Assembly (NCBI GenBank): GCA_030390025.1
Contig: CM059432.1
Location: forward strand, 26,476,001-26,540,000
Reading direction: 5' to 3'
Source: Squalus acanthias
Lineage: Eukaryota
Length of the DNA: 64,000 bases
Shown here one piece after another: positions 21,546 through 46,748 of the stretch. The notes beneath the pieces are model-generated. The model did not search any database, was not told the origin of the DNA, and worked only from the letters and a program-made list of their open reading frames with translations. Numbering within the stretch: the stretch's first letter is position 1; every line of letters begins with the position of its first letter. The translations under genes and the position numbers were made by a program.

Positions 21546-22363
21546 AAAAATCGCCTCCTCAATGCAGTTCATTCTTCAGGGATACTGGTGTTCATACTGC
21601 CACTTATATATAGCACGAAGAGTAAGCTCCAGGCTGAAAGATCTGTTTTCATTAAAATGGGAATGTATATTTTACAAATACTTGAGTCCATGTTGAGAAA
21701 GCATTGAGGTTATTAAGGCTTTCAGTGAATCTTCATATCATCAAAGCAAACATCAGAACTCTAGCCATGATACCATACATTGCCCTGCCCCTGCTTATTT
21801 TAACTTGGCAAAAAGTATCACACATTAGTCACACCCTTTCACCTGAAGTAGATTGGAATAGGAAGAAGATAAATGGATACATATCTATACATATATACAC
21901 ATGTGTGCAGAGGTTTAGAAAGAGAGAGAGAGAGAGATGTAGGAGTTAAAATAGGTTCAAACTGACATTTTGGTTCTGAGATGAACCATGATAAACCATG
22001 ATAAACTCCAAGAGTACCAGAAGCAGCTTTTACTCTACTTCTTAAAATAATTCAAATGATATCCCTATTTTTTATTCAGAGCATGAGAACCCCAGGTCAA
22101 TGTAACTGTACAACTAAAAGGTGCAGTGCAGTGGTGTGCTGTAATGTGCTGTGCGTCACTTGAATGCTAGTTTGCCAAATCTTATATCTCTCCACGTTCT
22201 GTTTACATTTCCTTCTTCCACCAATGTTGCCAAAGGGTTTGGGTTTTCACCCAGCACTAGCTCGTAAAGGGCTACCAAGAGAAGCATACAGGATCCTGGG
22301 CTTCATAAATAGAATTGAGAGGTCGCACAACACCAGGTTATAGTCCAACAGTTTTATTTTAAA

Positions 22364-22401
22364 TCACAAGCTTTCGGAGTTACAACTCCTTCGTCGGGTG
22401 A
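22364..22401 (-). ncRNA. Mirror copy of the minimal hammerhead-like motif
   Basis: Exact reverse complement of 22450-22487. Confidence 0.6.
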
Positions 22402-22449
22402 AGTGAGGAGATACAGAATCGTCAAAGCATATATAGATAGAGAACAACT

Positions 22450-22487
22450 TCACCCGACGAAGGAGTTGTAACTCCGAAAGCTTGTGA
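22450..22487 (+). ncRNA. Minimal type I hammerhead-ribozyme-like motif (variant core)
   Basis: UCAC-CCGACGA-A-GGAGU(UGUA)ACUCC-GAAAGCUU-GUGA: stem I UCAC/GUGA, stem II hairpin, GAAA, palindromic AAGCUU in place of stem III; the core is CCGACGA rather than CUGANGA. Confidence 0.65.
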
Positions 22488-23443
22488 TTTAAAATAAAAC
22501 TGTTGGACTATAACCTGGTGTTGTGCGACCTCTCAATTTTGTCCACCCCAGTCCAACACCGGCATCTCCGCATCATTCATAAATAGAGGCATAGAGTACA
22601 AAAGAAAGTATTTATGATAAACCTTAATAAAACACTCGTTCGGCCTCAACTCGAGTATTGTGTCCAATTCTGGGCACCACACTTTAGGAAGAATGTAAAG
22701 GCCTTAGAGAGGGTGCAGAGAAGATTTACAAGAATGGTTCCAGGGATGAGGGACTCCAGTTACGTGGATAGACTGGAAAAGCTGGGGTTGTTCTCCTTAG
22801 AGCAGAGAAGGTTGAGAGGAGATTTGATAGAGGTGTTCAAAATCATGAGGGGTCTAGACAGAGTAGATAAAGAGAAACTGTTCCCATTGGCGGAAGGGTC
22901 AAGAACCAGAAGACACAGATTTAAGGTGACTGGCAGAAGAACCAAAGGCGACATGAGGAAAAACTTGTTTACGCAGCGAGTGGTTAGGATCTGAAATACA
23001 CTGCCTGAAATAGTGGTGGAGGCAGATTTAATCGTGGCTTTCAAAAGTGAATTGGGTAAGTACCTGAAGGAAAAAAAATTGCAGGGCTATGGAGAGAGGG
23101 CGGGGGAGTGGGACTAGCTGAAGTGCTCTTGCAGAGAGCCAGCACGTGCTCTGTGGGACGAGTGGCCTTCTTCTGTGCTGTAACCATTCTATGATTCTAT
23201 GTGGTTCCAGTTTAAAGGATTATAGGCATTCTCCTTCTTCCTTTGCCTGTTCATCATTGTTCTGTCCAGAGAACTTAAGAAAGGTTTTCAATTCTTTCTC
23301 TTTTTTTAATAATATATAACAAAGGTTATGGAGCAGTTCATGTGACTAAGGATTCAAGGTCTTTATTTTCAATCAACATTTCTGCAGATTTATTTTTTGT
23401 AGCCAATAGAGGAATCTGTTTTTATGTGTGTGTTTATGCACAC

Positions 23444-38905: not shown

Positions 38906-40311
38906 ACAAAAAGTTAAAATTAGGTGGTTCATTAGAGCAGGATTGTCCAATCTTTGGCATATACCAGATCCCATACATAAAAATACAAGACCCCCATATA
39001 CAAGACCTCCATACACAGAAAACGTGAGCCCCCCACCCCCCCATGCACTGCATCCTTCTCCCTCCCTCCCCCAATCATCTCCCTTCCTTTTTCCTATTCT
39101 GTCCTTGCCTGAAGCTTGAAATTTGGAACCTTTAGCTGTCTAAAGTTCCTGGGACCAGAGGGCTGGTAAGGATTGATTCCTGAATGACTGTAATCCTTAA
39201 ACTGATTATTATTTGTTCAGAAGATTCTTTAGTGGTAATTTTTTGAGTCCGCAATGAACGTCGAGAAGCCTCACCCACAGCAGTGCATATTAGAAATGCA
39301 GTCGTGTACTGCCATGATATTCTGGACAGTGCAGAATCATAAAATTACTCCTTATATTTAATACATATAAGAATAGTATCTAAGTACCCACATATTAAGA
39401 AATGGTACACGTTCCATAACTGCACTCCAACAAGTGGCTCATCTCCGGCCAAAAATTGGTACTTTTTTCCCCATTTTCCACCTGGAAAACGGGTGTAATG
39501 AGGCCCAATTTCTACCCCATACTGTGTCCCTTCATCATCACTAGGTCAAAGCCCTGAAATTCCCTATCTAGCATTATCATGGGAGCACCATCACCAACAG
39601 GGGATGGGCAATAATGTGGCTTTGCGAGTGCCGTCCACATCCTAAGAATAAATAATATAAAGTGTAAAAGCTGAGTAAAAGTATACACTTACAATAGATT
39701 TTAAGGAAGATGTGACTTTTTACAAACTAGTGAGAATGATCATATATAATTAACAGGACAGTAATATCGAGCTATGTTAATAAATAACACCGGCATTTCC
39801 GCATCATGAATAAATTACTTGGGATGAAGCAAGCCACCTTCTATTTGCATACATTAAGAAAATAAAATCCAAGGGTTACAGGCACAGTTCGTATGCCAGA
39901 AACTCCAGAAAAAAATTGAAAGTGTAGGACACAGGACCATCTCACAGAAATGACTCTACCCTGTCTTTTTTTTTAAATCGGCATTGGGCATTAATATACA
40001 GTTAAAAGATCAATAGTTCATTTCATCAGTAGATAGTGTGATGGTATTTGCTGCAATTGCGAAACACTGAAATTGATCTTCAAAATGAAGATTCACTGCA
40101 AAAGTTCTTCACATGGTCCGTCTCTTACCATCAACCAATAAGGACAAACTAGTTGGGCCTAATGATTTTATTTTATCTGCCCCTAAAATTAGTTTCTAAA
40201 TGGAAGGAGGGGAGCTTGCTATTTTTTTATTTAAGATTTTCAGCAGTAAAAAAGATGGAAAACCAATAAAAACAAATATAAAGAAAATCGCACAAAGGGT
40301 TCTCTGGTAAT

Positions 40312-46285: not shown

Positions 46286-46489
46286 CCATGCCAGCTTCGC
46301 ATAAGCTTACACTTCAACCACAGGTGGCTGGCACATGGAGAGGAATATAAGTCCGACATTCTCAAAACCCCAGGCATCATCTCTCCAATAAATGATGATT
46401 TGCGGTCAGAGTCACCACCAACATTCTACATGGAAATCACCCTGAGCCCTCACTCTTCAACTTCCATTTCCCAGAACACAGAGGCCACA

Positions 46490-46748
46490 CTTTAGGTGAT
46501 CTCAGCAGATCATTAACCCTTTTTCCACACTGAACCCATGTGCGTCTGCACACAGACCTTGAGCTCACCTCCTCAGCAATTTGCAGCCAAGCTGCCTTGG
46601 TTTGCTGAGGAGGCCTCCTCCTTCCGTTTCCAGGGAAGAGGAATCCCTGACGTCCTCTGACTCCCTCAACAAGAGCATGGAGGGTGCCCTCATTGAACCT
46701 GGGTGCAGCCTTAGTTATTGGGGCTGTCGTTCCTGCAGCAGCCAGCAC
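46490..46748 (-). pseudogene. Harbinger Myb/SANT-like (trihelix) DNA-binding protein, open exon-sized frame
   Basis: AAPRFNEGTLHALVEGVRGRQGFLFP...TKAAWLQIAEEVSSRSVCRRTWVQCGKRVNDL; preceded by the minus-strand acceptor ttttttctcttctag. Confidence 0.85.

Follow-up and report, generated by a model that had tools for sequence, protein, structure and literature searches.

A 262-bp palindromic insertion with hammerhead-shaped motifs in Squalus acanthias, probably formed from two truncated ends of a Penelope-like element

Penelope-like elements (PLEs) are described as typically having an inverted copy truncated at its 5' end and a tail of 30-40 bp on one side (PMC8557442), and TATA and Inr-like motifs have been reported in their pLTRs (PMC3846280). 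The locus described here shares with canonical EN+ PLE insertions the head-to-head pLTRs, the tail at one end, a duplication of variable length and the TATA and Inr-like motifs (PMC8557442, PMC3846280), and differs from them in that both of its copies are cut to the last 129-134 nt, with no ORF left. Minimal hammerhead motifs on opposite strands, 100-700 bp apart, have likewise been reported, and dispersed motifs have been tied to truncated PLEs (PMC4209133). The motifs of our locus have the type I form, the extra base before stem II and the palindromic stem III of these metazoan PLE hammerheads (PMC4209133), whereas the subfamily to which the locus belongs carries a U4C core. Neptune- and Nematis-type PLEs encode a CX2-5CxxC linker (PMC8557442); the shark family departs from them in its targets, which are fixed LINE sites and a tandem repeat instead of (TA)n. 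Poseidon PAc of Anolis resembles the shark family in its AT-rich targets, in the two fixed 3' ends that delimit its tail and, as far as the available part of that study goes, in giving no sign of ribozyme-cut RNA as the main template, but belongs to another clade and has its start codon within the hammerhead, whereas that of the shark family follows the tail (PMC11167929). The available text of the same study leaves the inverted copy without explanation (PMC11167929). Animal non-LTR retrozymes are also ORF-less, about 260 bp long, PLE-related and equipped with a type I hammerhead, yet they are head-to-tail tandems with at least two sense ribozymes and a circular RNA (PMC7229834; 10.64898/2026.07.22.740005). 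We rejected this class for our insert, which consists of one unit, arranged head to head, and has a single sense motif on each strand.

The insertion lies in a stretch of 64,000 nt of contig CM059432.1 (hereafter the window, whose coordinates are used throughout). A direct repeat, TTCATAAATAGA, found at 22302-22313 and 22576-22587 (plus strand), forms a 12-bp target-site duplication that encloses 262 nt. Inside it, two inverted arms of 92 nt each, 100% complementary, correspond to pLTR positions +1..+92, the left one (22313-22404) on the minus strand and the right one (22447-22538) on the plus strand, so numbered that +1 is 22404 or 22447, respectively. The 42 nt between them (22405-22446, minus strand), i.e., the “spacer”, match ORF-bearing copies as the last 42 nt (-42..-1) of the autonomous 3' UTR/upstream pLTR, and join the right arm with a 1-nt microhomology at 22447. 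A 37-nt PLE tail (22539-22575, plus strand; +93..+129 by comparison with a full-length element) is present on the right side only, leaving the left arm untailed, and ORF sequence is absent from the 262-bp unit. Repeat analysis confirmed this anatomy as first described, including the mismatch-free arms. The host site has two relatives that lack an interruption, L055 and L184; in both, the flanks meet and overlap by 12 nt, which shows a clean insertion with a genuine duplication. The left copy of the duplication sits in a LINE ORF2 fragment, a recurrent target of the family, and over 166 aa the right flank shares 55% identity with the C-terminus of a LINE ORF2; we take the host LINE to be a CR1. 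The CpG observed/expected ratio is 0.91 in the insert vs 0.37 in the window, and the young age proposed in the original prediction is borne out as part of an interpretation that is, overall, partly supported. A TATA-like sequence had been noted earlier in the spacer; this needs one correction, in that the TATA consensus belongs to the minus strand, as TATATATG, 31 nt ahead of the left arm. An Inr consensus is at +1; together they make up a predicted promoter.

A search of the shark's own genome (3.7 Gb; the best 40 of 46 candidates scored) gave at least 70 matches, and the element body had 2285 candidates (40 scored). Spacer and left arm together (-42..+92) match ORF-bearing Penelope-like copies at 134/134 positions, in agreement with the Penelope origin originally proposed, and the same segment recurs exactly at 16 other fetched places, among them the ORF-bearing L173, L130, L144 and L145; in L010 and L015 there is a GIY-YIG C-terminus, encoded on the opposite strand, into which the spacer extends for ~470 nt. 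An autonomous PLE sharing the arm, which the original prediction had proposed to look for, was found in L066, where the arm flanks an RT/GIY-YIG ORF. This full-length element has a 5' pLTR, an 892-aa ORF (P0001), a 3' pLTR without tail and a 13-bp duplication; pLTRs also flank the ORF in a second full-length copy, L204, and in the full-length element the ORF start codon takes its A from the final base of the tail. Domain scans of P0001 returned RVT_1 (E 4.5e-9) as well as GIY-YIG at the C-terminus (E 1.3e-4); the protein also has DKG, and its RT and EN are connected by a CX4CxxC linker; a PDB search with P0001 gave 0 matches. L066 is ~95% identical to the window's subfamily in the pLTR and 97-98% in the ORF and, judged by sequence, is a sister subfamily of the window copy. 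The window's own subfamily sequence is carried by L173, with a 741-aa frame open to its stop, while no copy of precisely this subfamily was found to be both intact and full-length. In its associated ORF, pLTRs, inverted copy with tail and hammerhead motif the insert has the features of a truncated copy of an EN+ PLE, and we consider it almost certain that it is a truncated inverted copy of an ORF-bearing one; the source family would be an active-looking Neptune-type PLE, the linker being a mark common to Neptune and Nematis. The GIY-YIG fossil at positions 1-316, cited earlier as showing that the clade exists in this genome, was rejected as a partner: it is 28% identical to P0001 over 101 aa, without a nucleotide match, and hence belongs to another family. 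The stretch 13-306 within it is the degraded GIY-YIG end of that other PLE family and includes a cysteine linker.

Each arm contains a minimal type I hammerhead-shaped motif, at 22450-22487 (plus strand, predicted cut 22483/22484) and, mirrored, at 22364-22401 (minus strand), the latter arm also carrying AATAAA. Both motifs, and the cut, had been predicted and were recovered by eye and by folding; the Rfam scan of the insert returned no hammerhead family match, and a MIR821 match, which fell short of the gathering score, was discarded as the generic signal of a long hairpin. The motif combines a stem I of TCAC/GTGA, a CCGACGA core (U4C) that differs from CUGANGA, an extra A, a 5-bp stem II, GAAA and, as stem III, the palindromic AGCT. 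Folding recovered stems I and II weakly (z -1.9, with 7/200 shuffles equally good). For the complete unit the predicted fold is a perfect hairpin (-171.9 kcal/mol, z -23) in which the one sense motif of each strand is paired with its own complement. According to the available part of PMC4209133, metazoan minimal motifs do not cleave as monomers and do so little as dimers, and U4C is reported to reduce activity in vitro (PMC3088659). As a read-through RNA would bury each motif in a 92-bp duplex, the hammerhead motifs are best read, on the folding model, as passengers. Among long arms U4C is found in 7/42 and U4 in 35/42. The L174-L252 arms show the core variants CTGAGGA, CTGACGA and CCGACGA, and a stem II loop that is highly variable among young subfamilies, with the stems and GAAAGCT fixed. 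Ribozyme-cut RNA as the main template was rejected, given that 1/100 arms starts exactly at the cut and 5/100 within ~8 nt of it. One copy (L131, 2932-3047), with a duplication around it, ends at +37, exactly the predicted cut, which may reflect chance microhomology with the target.

Genome-wide, the arm 30-mer has 20,243 matches, a subfamily 28-mer 867 and the 23-mer across the window junction one, i.e., this locus. For the family census we took all of the first 100 arm-30-mer matches, from the first 13 Mb of one contig, with the query motifs placed inside the arm; an exact 30-mer was required, so that diverged or very short partners are missed. In this sample, arms no more than 3.5 kb apart form 27 inverted pairs with spacings of 106-2955 bp, 11 of them at 200 bp or less (the window locus would score 188 on the same measure), and 46 arms are unpaired, 15 of which are tailed. 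One of the unpaired arms pairs in tandem with a full-length copy, and the sampled insertion sites number 72 once it is left out. The inverted share is a lower bound, since several “singles” have a partner that deviates from the exact motif, and the members of one pair are separated by 5.3 kb. By extrapolation, the window locus is one of roughly fourteen thousand family insertion sites. When tight palindromes with the core variant of the window locus were examined, 40/41 matched, with duplications of 10-16 nt in 37.

The original prediction went further and saw in the insert a SINE-like unit, ribozyme-bearing and mobilized in trans. On this reading, a non-autonomous mini-element of SINE or retrozyme type would have its palindromic RNA copied in trans. 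Short palindromes are indeed common (at least 102 tight ones with this core variant, and the 11/27 sampled pairs of this size class), a few junctions recur, one locus (L002) has this spacer plus 11 nt, and the minus strand retains the TATA/Inr core. We nevertheless regard a mini-element as very improbable. The many copies of equal length and identical spacer junction that it led one to expect are represented in the genome search by a single junction match; spacer lengths are continuous, and the spacer is the upstream sequence of the autonomous element. Those junctions that do recur are seen on up to three loop variants or subfamily backgrounds with differing duplications, and their recurrence is therefore convergent and not clonal (L265 and L266 are a segmental duplicate pair). 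Moreover, there are no tandem units, the single sense motif of each strand is buried by its complement, and the unit is without the ORF sequence that, by analogy with the Poseidon template (PMC11167929), would be required.

The same LINE site is hit at 8/72 sampled sites, a raw count unscaled for target abundance, and the recurrence of this and other fixed sites points to a marked endonuclease site preference. Across L174-L252 a small fixed target set (LINEs and a ~67-bp tandem repeat) is reused, 52/100 flanks falling into 14 clusters. Elsewhere in the window, 39787-39809 holds a 24-nt match (22/24) to the end of the PLE tail between AT-rich near-repeats, possibly a tail-only micro-insertion judging from its sequence, and in L116 (1153-9901) a 4.9-kb block containing an inverted PLE pair is tandemly duplicated.

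The sampled pairs also inform on how such units form. Exactly one arm is tailed in 27/27 inverted pairs, the longer arm is the untailed one in 16, the tailed one in 8 and neither (equal lengths) in 3, and the lengths of the two arms are correlated (rho 0.68, n = 27, four pairs censored). Both arms have the same stem II loop variant in 37/38 scorable tight palindromes. We consider it very likely that the insert consists of two 5'-truncated PLE ends (-42..+92 on the minus strand and +1..+129 on the plus strand) set head to head, likely in one insertion event via two cDNAs, and that it is probably a dead end. The two-cDNA mechanism itself is somewhat less secure, being the explanation that we favor with modest confidence. 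The GIY-YIG domain would nick both target strands ~12 nt apart, and the 3' end at each nick would prime reverse transcription at one of the internal starts (+92 or +129), with one RNA probably serving both. Of the two cDNAs, the tailed one would have run off at +1, the predicted transcription start, and the other would have continued for another 42 nt along a template that included upstream sequence, after which the cDNA 3' ends could anneal via microhomology (1 nt here) and be filled in. In vitro, a Poseidon PLE has both target strands cut and extended, with two internal RT starts bounding the tail (PMC11167929); this support comes from another clade than that of the window family.

Alternatively, a single cDNA could fold back and prime itself, a template switch adding the tail or the extra length. 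Self-priming has been proposed for head-to-head PLE palindromes (PMC3846280) and would accommodate the identity of the arms within pairs, their correlated lengths, and the frequency of short palindromes or microhomology at junctions. In its simple form it is excluded, because of the one-tail rule in 27/27 pairs and the longer untailed arm in 16 of them, and neither arm of the window locus is a plain fold-back copy, because each holds sequence that the other lacks, i.e., the 42 upstream nt on the left and the 37-nt tail on the right. The outer ends, moreover, lie at two fixed 3' positions and come with a duplication. Overall, we judge self-priming improbable and retain two cDNAs as the preferred reading.

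The idea that +1 is the transcription start was set before sampling, the width of the interval used around it being picked after seeing the data. The TATA consensus occurs at -31/-32 in 40/42 long arms and the Inr consensus at +1 in 42/42, counts that are not independent because the arms are related. Among the 100 arms, 12 have their 5' end in +12..+58, 32 in -10..+11, 7 in -11..-60 and 49 further up, so that the per-base rate near +1 is ~8x that on either side. For the window's own subfamily (21/96 in -10..+7 and 15/96 in -11..-60, ratio ~3) the excess is weaker and broader, reaching ~-27, and the query motif hides ends past +7. Arms ended at +1 are found among tailed (16/42) and untailed ones (16/58) without a significant difference (p 0.29). 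From the sequence evidence we lean slightly towards +1 as the true RNA start. A single sharp start leaves the ends upstream of +1 unexplained, and the cluster is broad, above all in the window's subfamily, with a small hairpin predicted at ~-19..-6. Both latter features would suit a stall or template switch of the reverse transcriptase at RNA structure around the hammerhead. Yet the hammerhead stems, at +30..+41, would be reached first by an enzyme travelling 3' to 5', and just 5/100 arms end there; moreover, the TATA-Inr spacing is kept across subfamilies with different intervening sequence; we therefore think stalling unlikely, if far from negligible, as the cause of the cluster at the putative RNA start.

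The stumps might even record the PLE cycle. More speculatively than any of the preferred readings above, we suggest that one RNA is primed twice (at each nick and each start), that many cDNAs stop at the transcription start in the manner of a retroviral strong-stop, and that strand transfer, or else a template in tandem or circular form, is needed for long copies. Thousands of young copies in this genome offer material for examining the double-priming reading. A literature search, thin on subscription journals, returned no PLE paper on 5'-end clustering or twin priming, none pairing strong-stop with the pLTR, and nothing on inverted Neptune/Penelope retrotransposons in shark. The shape of the locus is already published, it is an ordinary insertion by-product, and taken alone it has little importance. 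It is the one-tail rule, the same-variant arms, the correlated lengths and the 5' ends near the predicted start that constrain how PLE inverted ends are formed. For annotation, such stumps deserve caution, as they resemble MITEs, miRNA hairpins or retrozymes.

In the window, no host gene was identified, given that a Pfam scan of 92/199 stop-free segments of at least 75 aa, which short exons escape, gave transposon-type domains only. One of these, at 46440-46748 (minus strand), is a fragment of a Myb/SANT-like domain (PF13873), presumably from a Harbinger-type transposon. Outside the window, several PLE copies are interrupted at pLTR +57..+60 by an ORF-less element of ~895 bp, which has GGGG...CC at its ends, shows a 4-bp overlap (TTGG) and occurs in at least three sequence variants (L090 1555-2449; L116 4162-5055; L141 from 3384; L045); from its sequence it seems to be a DNA-transposon-like element that targets the PLE. 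Finally, in L062 (2027-6956), L064 and L065 a PLE copy lies within a repeated unit of more than 9 kb, which has a 789-aa frame of envelope-like look without a Pfam match, plus shorter frames, and is 99% identical on several contigs.
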